Source: Minisyncoccota bacterium (GTDB taxonomy: Bacteria > Patescibacteriota > Minisyncoccia > Phycocordibacterales > UBA9973). Taken from it: a DNA stretch of 49,248 nt. Below are positions 25,489 through 46,021 of the stretch, piece after piece. The notes beneath the pieces are model-generated. The model worked only from the letters and a program-made list of their open reading frames with translations. It searched no databases and was not told the origin of the DNA. The position numbers and the translations under genes were made by a program. Positions within the stretch are counted from its first letter, which is position 1. Every line of letters begins with the position of its first letter. The stretch is taken from the NCBI GenBank assembly GCA_041674285.1, contig JBAYVZ010000006.1:1-49248 (forward strand). The letters are read 5' to 3'.

Positions 25489-26733
25489 TTATTTTTTTGA
25501 TATCTGAATCAATCTTTTATATTTAATAATGCGTTCGTATTTCGTCGGAGCTCCGGCTTTTAATCCATAACATCCAAATGCATATGCGAGGTCAGCTATA
25601 AAGTCATCATCCGTCTCGCCACTCCTGTGACTGACTATGATGTCAATATTGTTCTCACGGGCTAGCTTCATGGTATCTAGCGTCTCGGTTAGTGTGCCTA
25701 TCTGGTTTGGCTTTATTATTATTGTATTGATACTATCTTTTTGAATTGCTTTTTCCAAGAGCTTTACATTGGTAACAGTCAGATCATCGCCGACTACCTT
25801 TATATTCATATCATTTTTTAATTTTTGAAAATCTGCAAAGGCTTCTTCGTGGAATGGATCTTCGATGGATAAAATGTTGAATTCTTTTATGAGGTCTTTG
25901 TATATATTCATCAATTCATCTCTTGAGATTTTCTTGCCATCTATGTCGTACTTACTCTCATCTTTTCCGAATATTGTAAATTCTGGAGTACAGAATGATG
26001 ACGCTGCTACGTCCATAGCAAGGCGCACCTCACACCCTAGGGCATTTTCATCTATCGCACGACGGAGGTATTCTAGCGGTTTTTTTATATCTGTTATTTT
26101 TGGAGCAAAACCTCCTTCATCTCCCATGGGTACTTCATTTATATCAAGGTCACGACATAGCATATCCTCGATAGATTCTTGAACTTTGATACCTATCTTT
26201 ACTGCTTGTTTTACATCATTTGTAAAAGGAACTATGTGGTACTCCTGGAAAGCTAGATTATTGTTGGCATGCTTGCCTCCATTTATCAGGTTCATATATA
26301 GCAGTGGAACCATACGAGATGGCTTGATATCTGCGAGTGTGCGGAGATATTTATATAAATCCATATTTTTTGCTTCAGCTGTGGCTTTGGCTACTGCTAT
26401 AGATACACCTATGAGTGCATTGCCACCAAGATTTTTCTTTTGTTTTGTGTCATCAAGTTCCCGCATTATATTGTCGATGAGTTTTTGGTTTGATGCCTCT
26501 TTACCTAGTAGGGCGGGAGCTATTTTCTTGTTTATATTTTCAATTACCTTTTTTACACCTTTACCGTCTTTGTCACGGAGCTCGTATGCCTCGTGGGATC
26601 CGGTACTGGCACCAGAGGGTACAGAAAATGAACCAGTAGATTTTCCGATCTCTACTGTTACACAGATGGTGGGATTGCCTCGTGAATCCTTTATCTCTGT
26701 AGCAAAAATTTTAGTAATTTTACTTTGGCTCAT
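25489..26733 (-). CDS. eno: enolase
   Basis: [18 protein letters not shown] and the typical length of 414 aa. Its stop lies 1 nt before the pyk ATG. Confidence 0.95.
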
Positions 26734-26850
26734 CTCGTTAGAGATAGATAATGTTTACATTATCGTATCTTATTAATTTTAATATCAAAAAATTATTTTT
26801 ATAAATATAATAAGCTATAACACATTTTTAACATACACATCTCTAACGGG
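26734..26850 (-). mobile_element. ORF-less inverted-repeat element (MITE-like), copy 3
   Basis: The minus strand reads CCCGTTAGAG...[AT-rich]...CTCTAACGAG and abuts the eno ATG. Its termini and internal segment AATTTTTTGATATTAAAAT are shared with the copy at 44196..44311. Confidence 0.55.
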
Positions 26851-28123
26851 ACTGATTTGTATTTTTAAATAATATCATGATATCTGACACATTTGCATTT
26901 GTGGGTCCAGTCATAATCATATCTCCAATCTTTTCAAATGCACTGTATGCATCAAAATTCTCTATGTAATTTTTTATATCAATCTCTTTGTTTAAAACTT
27001 TTTCTTTTGTATGTACATCTATTATAGCACCTGCGCCAGCACTATTATCCATACCATCAGATGCGAGAGGGATGAATACTGAGTGCTCGCCAATTTTTTC
27101 TATCGCTTTTAGTCCCATGTACATATTTCTGCCACCAGAGCCACCTTTTTTTGTGACTACTAGTTTAGGCTCACCGGCTGCTATGATCACTGTGCCGTCT
27201 TTTTCATTTTCCATTATTTTCTCTAGTGCAGAGTCTACTTCATCGTATAATTCATTTGATACAACTATGGATGGATATCCTAATTCTTTAGCTTTTTGCT
27301 CCATTGCTTCTGTGGCGGTCTTGTTTGATACTAGGACAAAATTATTTACTTTTTCAAAATATTTATCTTCCTTGGGTGTCTCATTTAGATTAAATTCACC
27401 AAGATTGTAGTGGGCTATAATCTTTTCGGCATCATTTATAGTAGTCGTATCTTTGTATGTGGGGCCAGATGCAACATCTTCAAATTTATCTCCTGGTACA
27501 TCAGAAAATACCAATCCGATGACTGTAGCAGGGTAGGCGATCTTGGCCAGGCCTCCACCCTTGAGCATTGATATGTGTTTGCGTACTGTATTTATCTCGC
27601 TGATAGTATTGCCTGTTTTTAGGAATGTATTGTATAGAGTTTCCCCTTGGACACACTCGCTCTCTGGGTAGCATAATAATGCTGATCCACCACCAGATAC
27701 TATAGCTATGACCAGCTCATCTTCTTTTGCTCCGTCTGCTATTTCGTATATCTCTTTGCCGGGTCCCACATTGGCATGTGATGGTCGTGGGTGCGTGCCA
27801 GCGAAAGTACGTATAACAGGACAAATCTTTTGAGATAGTCCTATTACTGCACCTTCGGAAATCTTGTCCTTTAGTATTTCCTCTAATGCGTATGCGGCCT
27901 CACAAGAACATTTTCCAAAACCTACAACTTTTATTTTTGAAAATTTTGATAGATCAAAAGTTTGCCCCTGGATCGACAATATCTCTCCATCAAGCTGGAT
28001 AGATCTCTTTATCACCATTTCTGTGTTGATAGCATCGAGACCTGCCTCGGCAATAGCCAGAGCAACTTTGCGATTTTCTGTGGTTGCTATATCTTCATAA
28101 TTTTTAATCCAGTGTTTGCGCAT
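26843..28123 (-). CDS. glycerate 2-kinase (DUF4147/MOFRL type)
   Basis: VVGFGKCSCEAAYALEE, VSGGGSALL and C-terminal ASDGMDNSAGAGAI. The last two codons and the TAG stop lie inside the repeat element. Confidence 0.85.
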   Translation of the reverse strand: MRKHWIKNYEDIATTENRKVALAIAEAGLDAINTEMVIKRSIQLDGEILSIQGQTFDLSKFSKIKVVGFGKCSCEAAYALEEILKDKISEGAVIGLSQKICPVIRTFAGTHPRPSHANVGPGKEIYEIADGAKEDELVIAIVSGGGSALLCYPESECVQGETLYNTFLKTGNTISEINTVRKHISMLKGGGLAKIAYPATVIGLVFSDVPGDKFEDVASGPTYKDTTTINDAEKIIAHYNLGEFNLNETPKEDKYFEKVNNFVLVSNKTATEAMEQKAKELGYPSIVVSNELYDEVDSALEKIMENEKDGTVIIAAGEPKLVVTKKGGSGGRNMYMGLKAIEKIGEHSVFIPLASDGMDNSAGAGAIIDVHTKEKVLNKEIDIKNYIENFDAYSAFEKIGDMIMTGPTNANVSDIMILFKNTNQSR

Positions 28124-29779: not shown

Positions 29780-30823
29780 ATGAAATTATTTACATCATCA
29801 AAAAACAAGAAAGTTCGTGTCGCTATTAATGGTTTTGGTCGTATCGGTCGTGCATTCTTAAAGATTGCTTGGGATAGGGAGGATATAGAGATAGTCGCTG
29901 TGAATGATCTAGGTTCTCTTGAATCTCTAGCATATCTACTCCGTCACGATACTGTATATAGAAACTGGAATCACGATGTGAAGATTGTAGGCACAGATAT
30001 GGTTATCGATGGAAAGACTGTAAAGTTTGTTTCTGAGAAGGATACTACAAAATTACCATGGAAAGATTTAAATATTGATGTAGTTGTAGAATCTACAGGA
30101 CTATTCACTGCATTCGACAAAGCAAAATTCCACATCGACTGTGGAGCTCGCAAGGTCGTGATCTCTGCTCCCTCAAAGGGGTCTGATGGAACTGTGCCAG
30201 GCGAGACAATACTCTTGGGTGTGAATGAAGATAAATTCGGTACATGCGAAATCACATCAAATGCATCTTGTACTACAAATGCATCAAGTCCACTTATCGC
30301 CATCCTTCATAAGGAGCTAGGCATTGAAAAAGCAATCCTAAATACTGTGCATGGGTACACAGCATCTCAGTCACTAGTAGATGGTCCAAGTAAAAAGGAT
30401 CTCCGTGAGGGTCGTGCTGCTGCTCAGAATATCGTACCTTCATCTACAGGTGCTGCGATCGCAGTCACAGAAGCATTCCCAGATCTAAAGGGGTTATTCG
30501 ATGGTATATCTATCCGCGTGCCAGTACCAGCAGGATCAATAGTAGATGTGACATTCATATCAAAGAAGGAGACTACTGCTGAAGAAGTGAATGCGATACT
30601 GACAAAGGCTGCAAACGATCCACACTGGAGTAAAATCTTTGCAGTCACAGATGAACCATTAGTATCATCTGATATCCTAGGTAATTCACATGCATCTATA
30701 GCGGACCTAGCTATGACTCGTGTAGTAGGTGGCAATCTAGTAAAAGTAATGGGCTGGTATGACAATGAGTATGGATACACATCTACACTAGTAGATCACG
30801 TAGTAAAAACTGGAAGTAAGTAA
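29780..30823 (+). CDS. gap: glyceraldehyde-3-phosphate dehydrogenase, type I
   Basis: INGFGRIGR, SNASCTTN (catalytic Cys) and WYDNEYGY. Start moved to ATG 29780. Confidence 0.95.
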   Translation: MKLFTSSKNKKVRVAINGFGRIGRAFLKIAWDREDIEIVAVNDLGSLESLAYLLRHDTVYRNWNHDVKIVGTDMVIDGKTVKFVSEKDTTKLPWKDLNIDVVVESTGLFTAFDKAKFHIDCGARKVVISAPSKGSDGTVPGETILLGVNEDKFGTCEITSNASCTTNASSPLIAILHKELGIEKAILNTVHGYTASQSLVDGPSKKDLREGRAAAQNIVPSSTGAAIAVTEAFPDLKGLFDGISIRVPVPAGSIVDVTFISKKETTAEEVNAILTKAANDPHWSKIFAVTDEPLVSSDILGNSHASIADLAMTRVVGGNLVKVMGWYDNEYGYTSTLVDHVVKTGSK

Positions 30824-30835
30824 TATGTTTAAAAT

Positions 30836-30866
30836 AAAAGCCCTATATATAGGGCTTTTATTTTTG
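30836..30866 (+). terminator. intrinsic terminator
   Basis: agccctata/tatagggct stem followed by T-runs. Confidence 0.75.
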
Positions 30867-30873
30867 CTAAAAA

Positions 30874-30882
30874 TGCTATAAT
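30874..30882 (+). promoter_or_regulatory. extended -10 box (TGcTATAAT) 6 nt upstream of ATG 30889
   Basis: TGCTATAAT-gggggt-ATGAAT. This ATGAAT is the left duplicate of the rpiB start, so the box is the presumed original rpiB promoter. Confidence 0.45.
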
Positions 30883-30894
30883 GGGGGTATGAAT

Positions 30895-31168
30895 CCCGTT
30901 AGAGATTATTTATGTTTTATACTTACGTAATTAAAAGTAAAAAAGATGGTAAACTTTACACAGGAAGTACAAATGACCTACGGAAGCGCCTTATTCAGCA
31001 CAACACTGGCAAATCTACCCATACGAAAGGACGCGGCCCATTTGTCATTATTTATTACGAAGCATGTTTAGATGAGCACAAAGCTCGGTCGAGAGAATTA
31101 TTTTTAAAAACGGGAATGGGCAAGCGTTATCTCAAGAACAGACTTGGCGCTTCCTATCTCTAAACGGG
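30895..31168 (+). mobile_element. inverted-repeat-bounded element carrying a GIY-YIG gene, copy 1
   Basis: CCCGTTAGAG (30895-30904) and CTCTAAACGGG (31158-31168) are imperfect inverted repeats. They are flanked by the direct repeat ATGAA at 30889-30893 and 31169-31173. Confidence 0.6.
30912..31163 (+). CDS. GIY-YIG nuclease superfamily protein (YhbQ/UPF0213-like, 83 aa)
   Basis: FYTYVIKSKKDGKLYTGSTNDLRKRLIQHN...YYE carries the GIY, YIG, Arg and Glu positions. The stop TAA lies inside the right inverted repeat. Confidence 0.85.
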   Translation: MFYTYVIKSKKDGKLYTGSTNDLRKRLIQHNTGKSTHTKGRGPFVIIYYEACLDEHKARSRELFLKTGMGKRYLKNRLGASYL

Positions 31169-31627
31169 ATGAAAATCTATATAGGTACAGACCATGCGGG
31201 ATTGGAATTAAAAGAAAAAATAAAAATATATTTAGAAGAAAAAGGCCATGAAGTGTATGATAAAGGGGCTTTTGGTTATAACGGGGAAGATGATTATCCT
31301 GATTTTATAATTCCCGTTGCAGAAGAGGTAGCGAAGGATCCGGATTGTATGGGTATAATCCTAGGTGGTTCCGGACAAGGAGAAGCTATGTGTTCAAATC
31401 GTATCCATGGGGTACGAGCTTGCGCATATTACGGTAGCTCATTTGAGATTCCAAAGCTCGCTCGAGCACACAATAATGCAAACATCTTGTCGATAGGAGC
31501 ACGATTTGTGAGTGAATTTGAAGCTAAAGACGTCCTCGATATATTCCTTGGTACACCTTTTTCTGGAGATGAGCGACATGTACGTCGAATTAGTAAAATA
31601 GATAACCTACTAGAAGCTAGAAACTAG
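31169..31627 (+). CDS. rpiB: ribose-5-phosphate isomerase B
   Basis: MKIYIGTDHAGLELKEKI..., GGSGQGEAMCSNR, 152 aa. Confidence 0.9.
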   Translation: MKIYIGTDHAGLELKEKIKIYLEEKGHEVYDKGAFGYNGEDDYPDFIIPVAEEVAKDPDCMGIILGGSGQGEAMCSNRIHGVRACAYYGSSFEIPKLARAHNNANILSIGARFVSEFEAKDVLDIFLGTPFSGDERHVRRISKIDNLLEARN

Positions 31628-31645
31628 CCACTAGAACCTAATCAT

Positions 31646-32347
31646 ATGGAAATAGTACCCGCAATATTAGTCAGAAGTTTTCGAGAGCTTCAAGATAGAC
31701 TCGCATTTGTGTCTAGACTTTCAAACACAGTTCATGTGGATTTTTGTGATGGTCGCTTTGTGACAGCGCAGACTTGGCCATATACTTACGGAGGATTCGA
31801 GGAAGACGTACATGCGCTGCATATACTAGATGAAGAGGAGGGTATGCCGTACTGGGATACTATGGATTTCGAATTTGATCTGATGGTAAAAAATCCACAC
31901 CTGGTGATGGATACTTTTATAAAATTAGGTGCAAAGAAATTGATTTTTCATATTGAATCTGTCTCAGATACTTCTGAATTCTTGGAATTCCTAGAAGGTA
32001 TAGATATGTACACTCGTGAGAATACAGAGCTGGGTATAGCTATAAATACTACGACAGATGTAGAAGTGTTGAAGCCATTCTTAATTCATGTAGATTTTAT
32101 TCAATGTATGGGCATAGCTCATATTGGCCGACAAGGCGAGGCTTTTGACGAAAGAGTATTTGAGCAAATTAAAAAAATAAGAGCTATGGATCCGCAAATG
32201 ATGATCGCAGTAGATGGTAGTGTGAATATGGCCACTGCTCCGATGCTAGTAGACCTAGGTGTCCGCAAGCTCGTAGTAGGATCTGCGATACTCGAAGATT
32301 CAGATCCTGTGAGTGTGATAGAAGATATGCGTGGCTTAGTAGAATAA
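31646..32347 (+). CDS. rpe: ribulose-phosphate 3-epimerase-like protein (divergent)
   Basis: IVPAIL..., HVDFCDGRFV, FHIE, AVDGSVN and VVGSAI follow the Rpe barrel order but are divergent. Pentose-phosphate neighbours support the call. Confidence 0.6.
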   Translation: MEIVPAILVRSFRELQDRLAFVSRLSNTVHVDFCDGRFVTAQTWPYTYGGFEEDVHALHILDEEEGMPYWDTMDFEFDLMVKNPHLVMDTFIKLGAKKLIFHIESVSDTSEFLEFLEGIDMYTRENTELGIAINTTTDVEVLKPFLIHVDFIQCMGIAHIGRQGEAFDERVFEQIKKIRAMDPQMMIAVDGSVNMATAPMLVDLGVRKLVVGSAILEDSDPVSVIEDMRGLVE

Positions 32348-42948: not shown

Positions 42949-43842
42949 ATGAAGCATATTTCTGTACTCCTACATGAGACGATAGATGGGTTGGCTATAA
43001 AATCAGGTGATATCATCGTCGATGGTACACTCGGTGGCGGTGGTCATACTCGCGAAATTGTGCACAGGTTCGGATCCGGCGTAAAAGTCATAGGTCTGGA
43101 TCTAGATAGCGATGCGATGCACAGAGCAAAGGAGAGTCTCTCTGGTATGGATAGCGACACAGTCTTTAAAATAGCAGGATTCCAAGATATAGATAAAGTC
43201 CTCTCAGAGCTAGGCATTCCAAAGGTGGACAAGATTCTCCTGGATCTAGGTATCAGCTCATTTGAGCTGGATATCGGAGGGAGAGGATTTTCATTCCTAC
43301 GGGACGAGCCACTGCTGATGACTATGAAGAAGGAGCCTACGGATGAAGATCTAACTGCAAAGGATATAGTCAACACTTGGGATGAAGAAAATATCGCTGA
43401 CATAATTTATGGTTTTGGAGAAGAAAAGTATTCCAGGATTATCGCTCGCGCTATAGTCGCTGCCCGTAAAGAAAAATCAATAGAGACTACTTTTGATTTA
43501 GTAAAGATATTGGATGATTGTATCGGACGAAGATATAAAGGGCAGAGGATACATCCGGCGACTCGTACATTCCAAGCATTGCGTATAGCTACAAACAGTG
43601 AATTGACCAATTTAGAAAAAGTGATTGAAAAAGGTTTTGATTCACTCTCTGTAGGTGGAAGGATAGCTATCATCAGCTTTCATAGCCTAGAAGACAGGAT
43701 AGTAAAGAGAGCTTTTGTAAAACTCAAAGAAGACGGCAGAGCTACGATAGTGACAAAAAAACCAATAGTGCCCACAGACGAAGAGATCAGGGAGAACAGT
43801 CGTTCTCGAAGTGCAAAACTAAGAGTCATCGAAAAATTATAA
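42949..43842 (+). CDS. rsmH: 16S rRNA (cytosine1402-N4)-methyltransferase
   Basis: HISVLLHE, DGTLGGGGHT, SFHSLEDRIVK, NSRSRSAKLR. Confidence 0.95.
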   Translation: MKHISVLLHETIDGLAIKSGDIIVDGTLGGGGHTREIVHRFGSGVKVIGLDLDSDAMHRAKESLSGMDSDTVFKIAGFQDIDKVLSELGIPKVDKILLDLGISSFELDIGGRGFSFLRDEPLLMTMKKEPTDEDLTAKDIVNTWDEENIADIIYGFGEEKYSRIIARAIVAARKEKSIETTFDLVKILDDCIGRRYKGQRIHPATRTFQALRIATNSELTNLEKVIEKGFDSLSVGGRIAIISFHSLEDRIVKRAFVKLKEDGRATIVTKKPIVPTDEEIRENSRSRSAKLRVIEKL

Positions 43843-43863
43843 TTAATCAATATCAAGATCAAA

Positions 43864-44190
43864 ATGAATAAAGCAAAAACAATAACAAATACACTATCAC
43901 ATGATATGAATGTACAGCGTACAGTATTCAAAACTCTAGTAACGTCTATTGTTATGCTTTCTATTTGCTATATTTATTTTATCGGATCAATCACATTCAA
44001 TGTGCTAGCTCGCAAGTCTCTGGAGTCAAATATGCGTGAGGTCGGCAGTCGTGTCAGCAATCTAGAGCTTTCATATCTCTCCATCTCAAACTCTATAGAT
44101 AAGAATTTTGCTTCATCACTTGGCTTTGTCGATGCCGCTTCTCCAATATTTGCTACACGCATTGTCGCATCTCGTGTCGCTGTAAGATAA
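43864..44190 (+). CDS. FtsL-like single-pass membrane protein (positional call)
   Basis: 108 aa with one TM segment and a coiled-coil-like tail, sitting in the ftsL slot between rsmH and ftsI. Confidence 0.5.
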   Translation: MNKAKTITNTLSHDMNVQRTVFKTLVTSIVMLSICYIYFIGSITFNVLARKSLESNMREVGSRVSNLELSYLSISNSIDKNFASSLGFVDAASPIFATRIVASRVAVR

Positions 44191-44195
44191 TGAAT

Positions 44196-44311
44196 CCCGT
44201 TAGAAGCCACGGTCACAATGAAATTTTTTGTGATATTAAAATGATAAATCAAAATTATAAAATAATATTTAGTAAGGGCGGTGTTTTGACCGTGACCTGC
44301 TTCTAAACGGG
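44196..44311 (+). mobile_element. ORF-less inverted-repeat element (MITE-like), copy 2
   Basis: CCCGTTAGAAG (44196-44206) and CTTCTAAACGGG (44300-44311) are inverted repeats, extended by gccacggtcac/gaccgtg. They are flanked by the direct repeat ATGAAT at 44190-44195 and 44312-44317. Confidence 0.6.
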
Positions 44312-46021
44312 ATGAATACTGCGTCTTTTAAAACACGCATTAAAATAGTGTCTGGTTTTATTTTTCTGTTTGCCTGCATACTTGTCGGCAAGCTTTTTTT
44401 AGTTCAGATTGTTCATCAAAATGAGTACTCCGAAAAAGCTGATAGGCAGTATTCTACTCCATCTGGCAATGTTTTTAATCGTGGGACTATATTTTTTACT
44501 AAAAAAGACGGCAATCTAGTGGCTGCGGGAGCTATGATGTCTGGATTCAAGATTGCTATCAAGCCCAAGGACATAAAAGATCCTGAAGATTTATATAAAA
44601 AATTGGATCCGTACATCACCATGGATCACGATACCTTCATCGCAAAAGCGACAAAAAAGAATGACCCATATGAAGAGGTAGCTACTAGGCTTCCAAAAGA
44701 GACCGTCGATGAGATAGAAAAATTGAGCATACCTGAAGTTTCTGTTTTTAAAGAAAAATGGCGTTTTTATCCTGGTGGAGAGCTGGCTTCTCAAACTCTC
44801 GGATTTATCGCATACAAAGGTGATGAATTGACTGGGCAGTACGGCCTAGAGAGGTACTACAACAAGACACTATCGAAACCAAAAGATCAATCATATGTAA
44901 ATTTCTTTGCAGAAGTTTTTTCTGATATAAAAGATACTTTTACAGGCGAGGAGACTGGCGATGTGATCACTACTATAGAGCCTGGGGTAGAACAGACGCT
45001 AGAATCCGAGATGAGAAAAACTCTAGAAACTTGGAGCGGAGATCAAGTAGGTGGCATAATCATGAATCCAAATAATGGAGAGATATACGCCATAATGGGA
45101 GCTCCAGATTTTAATCTCAATGAATTTGGTAAAGTTGCGAGTCCCTCTGTGTATAGAAATCCACTGGTTGAAAACGTATACGAATTTGGATCTGTGATCA
45201 AGCCATTGGTCATGGCTGCTGCTATAGACAAGGGAGTAGTCACTCCGGAGACTACATATACAGATACTGGTAGTCTGATTATAGAGAAAAGACAAATATT
45301 TAACTTCGATAAAAAAGCTCGTGGCAAGAATACAACGATGCAAAGAGTACTAGATGAATCTCTCAACACGGGTATGATTTTTGTGGAAAGACAGATGGGC
45401 CATGATAGCTTTCGATCATATATGAAAAGTTATGGTATAGGAGAAAAGACTGGTATCGATCTGCCGAATGAGACAAGTGGCCTGATTAAGAACCTAGAGA
45501 GTCCACGTGATATCGAGTATGCGACTGCCTCTTTTGGGCAGGGTATCGCCGTGACCCCCATAGAAGCAGTGCGTTCATTTGCTGTATTGGCGAATGGTGG
45601 TAATCTCGTCGTGCCGCATCTAGTAAAGCAGATACGATACGAAAATGGACTATCTAAGAATATAGAATACGAGCCGACACGTACGGGGATACTAAAAAAA
45701 GAATCTACGGATACTATCACTCGTATGCTCGTCCATGTATTTGAGTCATATGGTAGTGGTTCTTATAAAATACCTAGATATAGTATCGCCACAAAGACTG
45801 GAACTGCGCAAGTAGCCAAAGATTCAGGAGGGGGGTATTATGAGGACCAGCATATGCACTCATTCTTTGGATATTTCCCAGCATATGAGCCTAAATTTGT
45901 TGTTTTCTTGTTTATACGCAATCCAAAGGGGGTAAATTTTGCTTCACAGACATTGATACCACCTTTTGTTAATATCACAAAATTCTTGCTCAATTATTAT
46001 GATGTAGCTCCTGATAGATAG
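44312..46021 (+). CDS. ftsI: penicillin-binding protein (class B transpeptidase, FtsI/PBP2-like)
   Basis: N-terminal TM segment, SVIKP (SxxK), SLN (SxN) and KTGTA (KTG). Confidence 0.9.
   Translation: MNTASFKTRIKIVSGFIFLFACILVGKLFLVQIVHQNEYSEKADRQYSTPSGNVFNRGTIFFTKKDGNLVAAGAMMSGFKIAIKPKDIKDPEDLYKKLDPYITMDHDTFIAKATKKNDPYEEVATRLPKETVDEIEKLSIPEVSVFKEKWRFYPGGELASQTLGFIAYKGDELTGQYGLERYYNKTLSKPKDQSYVNFFAEVFSDIKDTFTGEETGDVITTIEPGVEQTLESEMRKTLETWSGDQVGGIIMNPNNGEIYAIMGAPDFNLNEFGKVASPSVYRNPLVENVYEFGSVIKPLVMAAAIDKGVVTPETTYTDTGSLIIEKRQIFNFDKKARGKNTTMQRVLDESLNTGMIFVERQMGHDSFRSYMKSYGIGEKTGIDLPNETSGLIKNLESPRDIEYATASFGQGIAVTPIEAVRSFAVLANGGNLVVPHLVKQIRYENGLSKNIEYEPTRTGILKKESTDTITRMLVHVFESYGSGSYKIPRYSIATKTGTAQVAKDSGGGYYEDQHMHSFFGYFPAYEPKFVVFLFIRNPKGVNFASQTLIPPFVNITKFLLNYYDVAPDR

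Follow-up and report, generated by a model that had tools for sequence, protein, structure and literature searches.

Bacterial MITEs (miniature transposable elements with inverted repeats), such as the Correia elements of Neisseria, the Rickettsia palindromic elements, and RUP/BOX, are short, hairpin-forming, multi-copy sequences without a transposase gene. They have terminal inverted repeats, duplicate their target, are co-transcribed with host genes, and have a longer partner with the same ends. To our knowledge the partners of insertion sequence (IS)-family MITEs encode DDE transposases, and no counter-example was met in the literature searched. In the repetitive extragenic palindrome systems (REP/REPIN-RAYT) and in IS200/IS605, one small nuclease gene flanked by palindromes is accompanied by many palindromic copies lacking an open reading frame (ORF). 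The ORF-less REPIN copies probably depend on the nuclease, with DNA hairpins as the likely substrate. RAYT and IS200/IS605 enzymes are HUH tyrosine nucleases, their repeats are located mainly 3' of genes or between convergent ones, and there is no target duplication. Here we describe a 116-bp ORF-less element between the gene in the ftsL position and ftsI in a 49,248-nt stretch of contig JBAYVZ010000006.1 from a Minisyncoccota bacterium (hereafter the window). It is very probably a non-autonomous, internally deleted, MITE-like copy of a mobile family of Patescibacteria whose full form, of ~275 bp, encodes a GIY-YIG nuclease.

The element occupies positions 44196–44311 of the forward strand, starts with CCCGTTAGAAG, ends with CTTCTAAACGGG, and belongs to the AGAAGCC subfamily. 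The gene order at the locus is mraZ-rsmH-(ftsL-position gene)-ftsI-murF, and all features described here lie on the forward strand. The ftsL-position gene (43864–44190, 108 aa) ends at a TAA (44188–44190) that overlaps an ATG at 44190. This ATG, which opens the left copy of a duplicated ATGAAT (44190–44195), was originally the start codon of ftsI and has kept its overlap with the upstream stop. The right copy (44312–44317) holds the present start of ftsI (44312–46021), the host gene, which encodes a class B penicillin-binding protein (Pfam Transpeptidase, 8e-68, and PBP_dimer). Direct reading reproduced the coordinates that an earlier note on this DNA had given for the ATGAAT repeats, the 116 bp, a 38-codon ORF running through them, and ftsI. 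The note called the upstream gene ftsL-like, which agrees with its position and size, although the protein has no Pfam match.

Junctions between the ftsL-position gene and ftsI were retrieved from relatives and aligned; homologues of FtsI mark the organism as a Paceibacteria-like member of the Patescibacteria. Three of these are empty and read TAATGAAYAC, the ftsL-position stop overlapping the ftsI start without a spacer, just as the uninterrupted TAATG overlap had been predicted. They are L002 (FtsI 96% identical; TAATGAATACTG, longer CGCTAATGAATACTGCG), L005 (82%; TAATGAACACTG, longer AGATAATGAACACTGC), and L006 (76%; TAATGAATACAG, longer AGATAATGAATACAGG). The identical 116 bp is found in an independent ENA assembly (L001), and three independent assemblies carry an element at this junction. 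In L003 and L004 (84%) the same 116-bp element lies at the same ftsI position with the 38-codon ORF still open. Because exact empty sites exist in three relatives, one of them (L002) closer to the window than the element-sharing lineage, the 116 bp is shown to be an insertion into the overlapping TAATG of the ftsL-position gene and ftsI, with duplication of (A)TGAA(T).

The two arms of the element form a long predicted hairpin. The left arm (CCCGTTAGAAGCCACGGTCA, 44196–44215) consists of the conserved 12-nt terminal repeat and a second stem that covaries in the family alignment, and pairs with the right arm (TGACCGTGACCTGCTTCTAAACGGG, 44287–44311) apart from 4-nt and 1-nt bulges. On the sense strand the fold comprises a 12-bp terminal stem, a second 8-bp stem (CACGGTCA/TGACCGTG), which is the secondary pairing described in the earlier note, and an AT-rich loop. 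Its energy is −36.9 kcal/mol vs. −20.8 ± 3.0 kcal/mol for shuffled sequences (z = −5.3), with none of 200 shuffles as stable. The AU that ends the left ATGAAT is predicted to pair with that of the ftsI AUG, closing the hairpin at its base. That the 116 bp is a conserved native spacer regulating ftsI, a palindrome arisen by chance, or an error of assembly has virtually no probability as an explanation. Beyond the position between two division genes nothing speaks for it; the hairpin stability and the three assemblies count against it, and it is refuted by the empty sites and by more than 50 related copies at unrelated genes.

A further possibility is that the hairpin now serves the host as an RNA kept by selection, acting as a REP-like stabiliser of mRNA, as a site of processing, or as a throttle on ftsI translation. 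The strong hairpin does include the ftsI AUG, the second stem has compensatory changes across the family, and a central loop stretch of about 45–50 nt is without any difference between the window and L003 despite saturated flanks. This explanation is nonetheless very unlikely. The closest relative lacks the element and keeps the tight TAATG coupling, and the loops are not conserved across the family. Rfam 15 gave no match in the window at the gathering score, with just the generic hairpin MIR4416 below threshold (22.5 bits vs. 70). Mismatches in the stems also have no sense-strand bias (7 G.U vs. 7 A.C), and this symmetry led to the rejection of selection on the sense RNA alone.

The comparison with L003 also bears on how the element reached ftsI. 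It is 93.1% identical between the two, while the flanking genes are 77–80% identical, with third codon positions at ~53%, and the 100 nt on each side are 77–79% identical right up to the element. These identities are read more simply as a recent arrival, in one lineage or both, at precisely this site with no co-conversion. Vertical inheritance is less simple because a loop that varies across the family would have to be under extreme constraint. Such a pattern could also be produced by homing, in which an empty allele is cut and repaired from a filled one by homologous recombination, as for free-standing GIY-YIG endonucleases. A 93%-identical variant at one site in two lineages, with the closer lineage empty, is in keeping with homing, as is the recombination mosaic of the genome. 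However, the flanks lack any sign of co-conversion, those of the window being similar to the empty L002, and copies of the family stand, with target duplications, at dozens of unrelated sites. Its nuclease also lacks the DNA-binding domain of homing enzymes. Arrival of the ftsI copy by homing is therefore considered quite unlikely.

The earlier note proposed a repeat family from three copies in the window, and the family extends far beyond it, with 75 full-length and ~75 ORF-less copies at many unrelated genes in Patescibacteria genomes and metagenomes. Full-length copies were collected by scanning one genome per species, with 80 of 383 encoding stretches examined, and ORF-less copies by a metagenome scan with the subfamily left arm CCCGTTAGAAGCCACGRTC alone, blind to the flanks. 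The 75 full-length elements are 273–285 bp with ends CCCGTTAGAGAT...ATCTCTAACGGG. An ATG follows directly 3' in 60 and a GTG in four, and in 59 this codon opens an ORF of at least 60 codons (null 0.0035 per position). The left-arm scan gave 74 loci, which reduce to 59 distinct ORF-less elements of 77–123 bp (most 107–123). Forward placement at an ATG opening a long ORF was found for 54 of these; one adjoins an ATG with a short ORF, one is inverted, and three are placed otherwise. Overall, ~85–90% of ~140 distinct copies lie directly 5' of a co-oriented host ATG, where chance predicts 0.35% per position. Further ORF-less copies adjoin nuclease-gene loci.

The host genes include ftsI, eno, rpiB, serS, ruvX, and genes for an M50 protease, TspO (tspO), a PrgI-like protein, and a TraG-type ATPase. 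Filled and empty orthologous starts were found for PrgI-like, TraG-ATPase-like, and other genes, and interiors can be 93% identical at unrelated sites (L132/L140). Because starts are filled or empty between genomes and near-identical interiors recur at unrelated sites, the family is, on these comparisons, mobile. One conserved gene cluster (PrgI-like, a 212-aa protein, and a TraG/VirB4-like ATPase) has been struck repeatedly and independently at three different start codons by both full-length and ORF-less copies (L010, L022, L024, L034, L037, L044, L048, L051, L102, L111). As to carriage by phages, IMG/VR held no close relative of the nuclease and no match to the ORF-less pattern, only two partial matches at 42% identity.

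The ends of the element are tightly defined. In the terminal 12 nt of 128 elements, 1518 of 1536 positions are Watson-Crick paired. Of 143 distinct junction pairs, 141 have complementary bases preceding CCCG and following CGGG (T/A 132, C/G 9). Taking T...A as the ends, 95 of 143 copies stand between direct repeats of 3 nt or more, vs. 27 expected under shuffled pairing. The modal duplication is 4 nt with the general form TGNN (TGAA 32, TGGA 18, TGAG 8), and an A precedes the left repeat in 87 of 104. As these junctions show, the outermost pair of the element is T...A (or C...G) and its last base apparently becomes the first base of the rebuilt ATG (or GTG), since the flanking bases are complementary and the TGNN duplication is preceded by A. 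At ftsI, where ATGAAT stands on both sides, the extent of the duplication is ambiguous, from TGAA to ATGAAT. Across the family the right junction is fixed at the start codon and the left varies, with duplications of 0–5 nt. The left ATG is sometimes ACG, ATT, CTG, TTG, or GTG, and is missing in 14 of 54 ORF-less copies. The right terminal repeat carries a TAA 4–5 nt before the host ATG, and in a second group of full-length copies the nuclease stop is instead a TGA that overlaps the ATG.

Some junctions point to altered start codons. L061, a copy with C...G ends (2483–2757), has ATGAAC on the left and GTGAAA, the present host start, on the right, a variant that turns a host ATG into GTG. At other loci among L033, L036, L123, and L041, the left flank has TTG or GTG and the present start is ATG, as though a rare start codon had become ATG through the insertion. 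Tandem or nested copies were seen at L065 (~2460–2480), L082 (~2465–2481), L109 (reverse complement, 1493–1733), L016 (2411–2756), and L106/L116. Tandem neighbours have one common ATGAAT between the right end of one copy and the left end of the next, which implies insertion again into a junction of the element's own making; L065 and L082 show this rebuilt junction to be a target.

This placement may reflect mechanistic targeting of start codons or the survival of insertions there. Under the second explanation, insertion takes place at a short A/T-rich motif (e.g. ATGRA) anywhere, and gene-sparing insertions persist in gene-dense genomes. The short duplications, mainly TGAA, TGGA, and TGAG, are consistent with this, as are a few copies with non-ATG duplications (CTAA, TAA, ATAAT) some nt 5' of the start (L030, L040, L133), and the targets have no common context beyond ATG. 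Selection surely removes insertions inside genes. However, survival alone predicts frequent insertions at intergenic ATGRA and frequent inverted insertions, whereas 54 of 59 copies are forward at a start and one is inverted. The symmetric terminal repeats rebuild the ATG and carry the TAA in both orientations, and the tandem insertions into a rebuilt ATGAAT mark the junction as a target. Placement by selection without targeting thus appears unlikely, though it is a serious contender. Mechanistic start-codon targeting is favoured because intergenic copies away from starts are nearly absent and because the orientation bias is 54:1 despite symmetric termini.

Many targets have an extended −10 box (TGnTATAAT) ending 6–8 nt before the ATG and no Shine-Dalgarno sequence, for example at 30874–30891 of the window (TGCTATAATGGGGGTATG) and in L008, L018, L032, L054, L135, and L136. 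Leaderless mRNAs may be common in these bacteria; if these are leaderless, the duplication would begin at the transcription start. Other targets, including ftsI and eno, are operon-internal overlaps.

The full-length partner is present in the window itself. The earlier note had named two further copies, and both exist, making three within the 49 kb. The full-length member (30895–31168, forward strand) lies between ATGAAT (30889–30894) and ATGAAA, the start of rpiB at 31169, with TGCTATAAT-N6 immediately 5' of the left ATG. It contains an ORF for an 83-aa GIY-YIG nuclease (30912–31163, forward strand; Pfam 5e-17), whose stop, a TAA within the right terminal repeat, precedes the rpiB ATG by 5 nt.

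In full-length elements generally, this nuclease of 83–86 aa is a single domain and the sole ORF between the ends. A word-limited protein search returned 1188 homologues, the top 120 of which are 77–95% identical and 83, 84, or 92 aa long, with Paceibacterota, Nomurabacteria, and Woesebacteria as named sources. Across 30 homologues (76–95% identical) Y3/Y5, Y16, R24, H30, E62, and N76 are invariant, which we take to be the GIY-YIG catalytic positions. The last 16 residues are invariant as well, and the right terminal repeat itself provides the final codons (SYL-stop). The closest solved structures by sequence are the UPF0213 proteins BH0048 (2e-7) and EF2693. A predicted model (predicted local distance difference test, pLDDT, 92.4) has a template-modelling score (TMq) of 0.63–0.68 to BH0048 and the Slx1 nuclease domain, and a lower TMq of 0.44–0.46 to the I-TevI catalytic domain. 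Neither Pfam nor the structure model gave a DNA-binding domain in the 83-aa protein, and the group I intron endonuclease model TIGR01453 scored 27 bits vs. a cut-off of 56. Slx1 is a structure-selective nuclease, with YhbQ and YazA in its family (PMC7017083). Because of its Slx1-like fold and lack of a DNA-binding domain, the nuclease probably acts on a hairpin or cruciform formed by the terminal repeats, and it probably mobilises both full-length and ORF-less copies.

The third copy, ORF-less and 117 bp (26734–26850), is on the reverse strand, immediately 5' of the ATG of eno (enolase) at 26733. Upstream, the DUF4147/MOFRL gene (glycerate-kinase-like) now stops at a TAG within the left terminal repeat of the element, ending ...CAG TCC CGT TAG (26843–26856, minus strand). 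Removal of the element predicts an original 14-nt overlap of this gene with eno (ATGAGCCAAAGTAA), and the duplication reads ATCAG on the left vs. ATGAG on the right. The earlier note based kinship partly on an interior string, AATTTTT(TG)TGATATTAAAAT, shared by the ftsI and eno copies. This string is present in both, but its offsets differ and it is marginal over AT-rich chance (shuffle P = 0.05). Likeness of the ftsI interior to the eno copy or to the nuclease-gene interior was marginal or absent (P = 0.05, 0.56, 0.32), which makes interior likeness between the ftsI and eno copies weak evidence of family.

Around rpiB, positions 30002–32347 of the window are 95–99.9% identical to L007 from a Paceibacterota genome (rpiB 99.3%, next gene 99.9%). 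About 13 kb away, the dcw cluster (42949–46021) is only 77–79% identical to L005, and both loci come from contig JAGOUR010000001.1. These identities describe the recombination mosaic noted above. At rpiB the nuclease element has diverged further (96.7%) than the flanks around it, which suggests exchange among element copies. Elsewhere in the window, two 64-nt direct repeats (154–217 and 798–861) are 72% identical, each with TTGACA...TATAAT-like boxes, and may be duplicated promoter regions.

The nuclease ATG of full-length copies lies 17 nt in from the left end, neither a promoter nor a ribosome-binding site belonging to the element is evident, and the nuclease ORF ends at the terminal-repeat TAA. 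The duplicated host ATG opens a 13–17-codon ORF that overlaps the nuclease start in most full-length copies and is fused in frame to the nuclease in seven. The 92-aa nuclease forms start with MNPVRD or MDPVRD, which is the host ATG plus the translated terminal repeat.

At ftsI the duplicated ATG opens the 38-codon ORF (44190–44306), which ends at a TAA in the right terminal repeat (44304–44306), 5 nt before the ftsI ATG. An internal short ORF in frame with it (44241–44306) encodes the peptide MINQNYKIIFSKGGVLTVTCF. These 38-codon and 21-codon ORFs are the only ones of the 116-bp element, and Pfam matches neither. Just eight of 40 ORF-less copies have an ORF that starts at the left ATG and runs through the entire element (2.8 expected, P = 0.004); relay across a whole-element ORF is, on this count, not a family trait. 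Association of whole-element ORFs with operon-internal sites was considered and rejected (Fisher P = 1).

A shorter form is common. An ATG-started ORF of 17–39 codons ending at the terminal-repeat TAA is found in 24 of 60 subfamily copies vs. 3.5 expected, and none of 100,000 draws reached 24. A stop just before the host start, with an upstream ORF feeding into it, is on this excess a recurrent design. The peptides are related to one another (e.g. MKSKNIKINNLTKQTRKLIVICF, MFIKDKKFNNITKQSRGLLTATCF, and that of the ftsI copy). They may be what is left of a nuclease gene after internal deletion, but immediately inside the right end the likeness to the 3' end of that gene is only modest. A translational hand-off at ftsI is therefore plausible as a design. 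Since many copies have no short ORF or no left ATG, the hand-off cannot be the sole route to host expression. An outward promoter was not apparent in copies without a short ORF, where sigma-70-like sites occur at 0.25 on the sense strand, 0.38 on the antisense strand, and 0.29 in shuffled sequences; a promoter scan of the ftsI copy gave weak sites only (five vs. 2.6 expected). The loops of copies without a short ORF (e.g. L096, L104, L107, L119, L126, L136) have the common motifs TGGGRA...TTATTATTTAAATTAA...AGCARG, which neither an ORF nor a sigma-70-type promoter accounts for.

Taken together, these data fit a model in which the nuclease would cut the hairpin or cruciform extruded from the terminal repeats, moving full-length and ORF-less copies alike. 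The element would be expressed from the start signals of the host gene, which are kept at the left duplication copy. At ftsI, ribosomes finishing the upstream gene would restart at 44190, or start at 44241, translate through the element, and melt a hairpin of −37 kcal/mol that otherwise buries the ftsI ATG. They would then stop at 44304–44306 and restart at 44312, and the essential gene would stay expressed.

Several points weigh against this model. The mobilising role of the nuclease comes down to its being the only ORF between the common ends. A fixed staggered cut would not usually leave duplications that vary from 0 to 5 nt. A terminal short ORF is missing from about 32 of 60 ORF-less copies. 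Copies were surveyed in genome fragments rather than whole genomes. Recognition of a start codon at the DNA level is unexplained. The targets are both promoter-proximal, possibly leaderless, and operon-internal, and selection may contribute to the placement pattern.

A broader reading would make the family a new class of prokaryotic transposable element. Such a class would be defined by a minimal Slx1-like GIY-YIG nuclease, mechanistic start-codon targeting with a cut at A/TG, a donated start base, takeover of host initiation, and a stop-restart ORF. This is put forward tentatively, as a possibility somewhat short of even. If it is true, essential genes such as ftsI, eno, and serS would tolerate the element. 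If the nuclease drives mobility, GIY-YIG joins the short list of enzyme classes that move prokaryotic inverted-repeat elements, with a choice of target, start codons in one orientation, beyond what sequence preference alone accounts for. The family is also a concrete case of a selfish element in essential, translationally coupled operons of very small genomes whose host survives. For annotation, such hairpins displace promoters and start signals, make spurious 5' extensions like the 92-aa 'MNPVRD' nuclease, and can turn an ATG into a GTG. The stop-restart cassette and a start-codon-seeking insertion system are possible tools. Uncultured candidate-phyla bacteria have few tractable mobile elements, and the present one is small enough for in vitro work.

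Among described systems, bacterial MITEs are matched in every defining feature examined. The ftsI element is short, has no transposition gene, has inverted repeats and a duplication verified by empty sites, is multi-copy, and has a coding partner with the same ends. It differs in that this partner carries the gene of a minimal GIY-YIG nuclease in place of a DDE transposase, and in the one-orientation insertion at start codons, with a rebuilt start and a stop 4–5 nt before it. ORF-less copies are putatively mobilised in trans by the nuclease of the partner. REP/RAYT and IS200/IS605 elements have the same pairing of one palindrome-flanked nuclease gene with many ORF-less copies. Membership of either was rejected as the sole ORF is a GIY-YIG domain and not an HUH (Y1) nuclease, and unlike those repeats the present elements lie 5' of genes at the start codon.

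The nuclease itself falls with UPF0213/YhbQ/YazA/Slx1, its best sequence match being 1ZG2 (2e-7) and its fold match the Slx1 nuclease domain. Slx1 has a zinc-finger domain and needs Slx4. In the literature found, bacterial UPF0213/YhbQ members have no link to mobile DNA, whereas here the gene is bracketed by inverted repeats and multi-copy. A literature search that was not exhaustive gave no description of this family, of any GIY-YIG element bounded by inverted repeats, or of bacterial insertion specific to start codons.

The free-standing GIY-YIG homing endonucleases encoded by seg genes of T4-like phages likewise have a GIY-YIG gene as sole cargo and fill the same site in diverged lineages. 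T4 free-standing endonuclease cassettes are promoter-less, depend on promoters of the host, and overlap or are coupled to adjacent ORFs, as at the UAAUGA of nrdA/mobE, an HNH gene (PMC2988022). The family described here resembles these promoter-less, translationally coupled cassettes in behaviour, as it does the REPIN pattern of one nuclease with palindromes. Seg enzymes, however, have a DNA-binding domain, cleave a single cognate site at a distance of hundreds of bp, are spread through recombination with co-conversion, and have neither inverted repeats nor target duplication. Of the features that define I-TevI and Seg homing endonucleases, the full-length partner has the catalytic core, and a DNA-binding domain and co-conversion are both absent. 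What remains is the catalytic domain alone, set between inverted-repeat ends and found at many targets. We rate the family as a nuclease-encoding inverted-repeat element with MITE derivatives.

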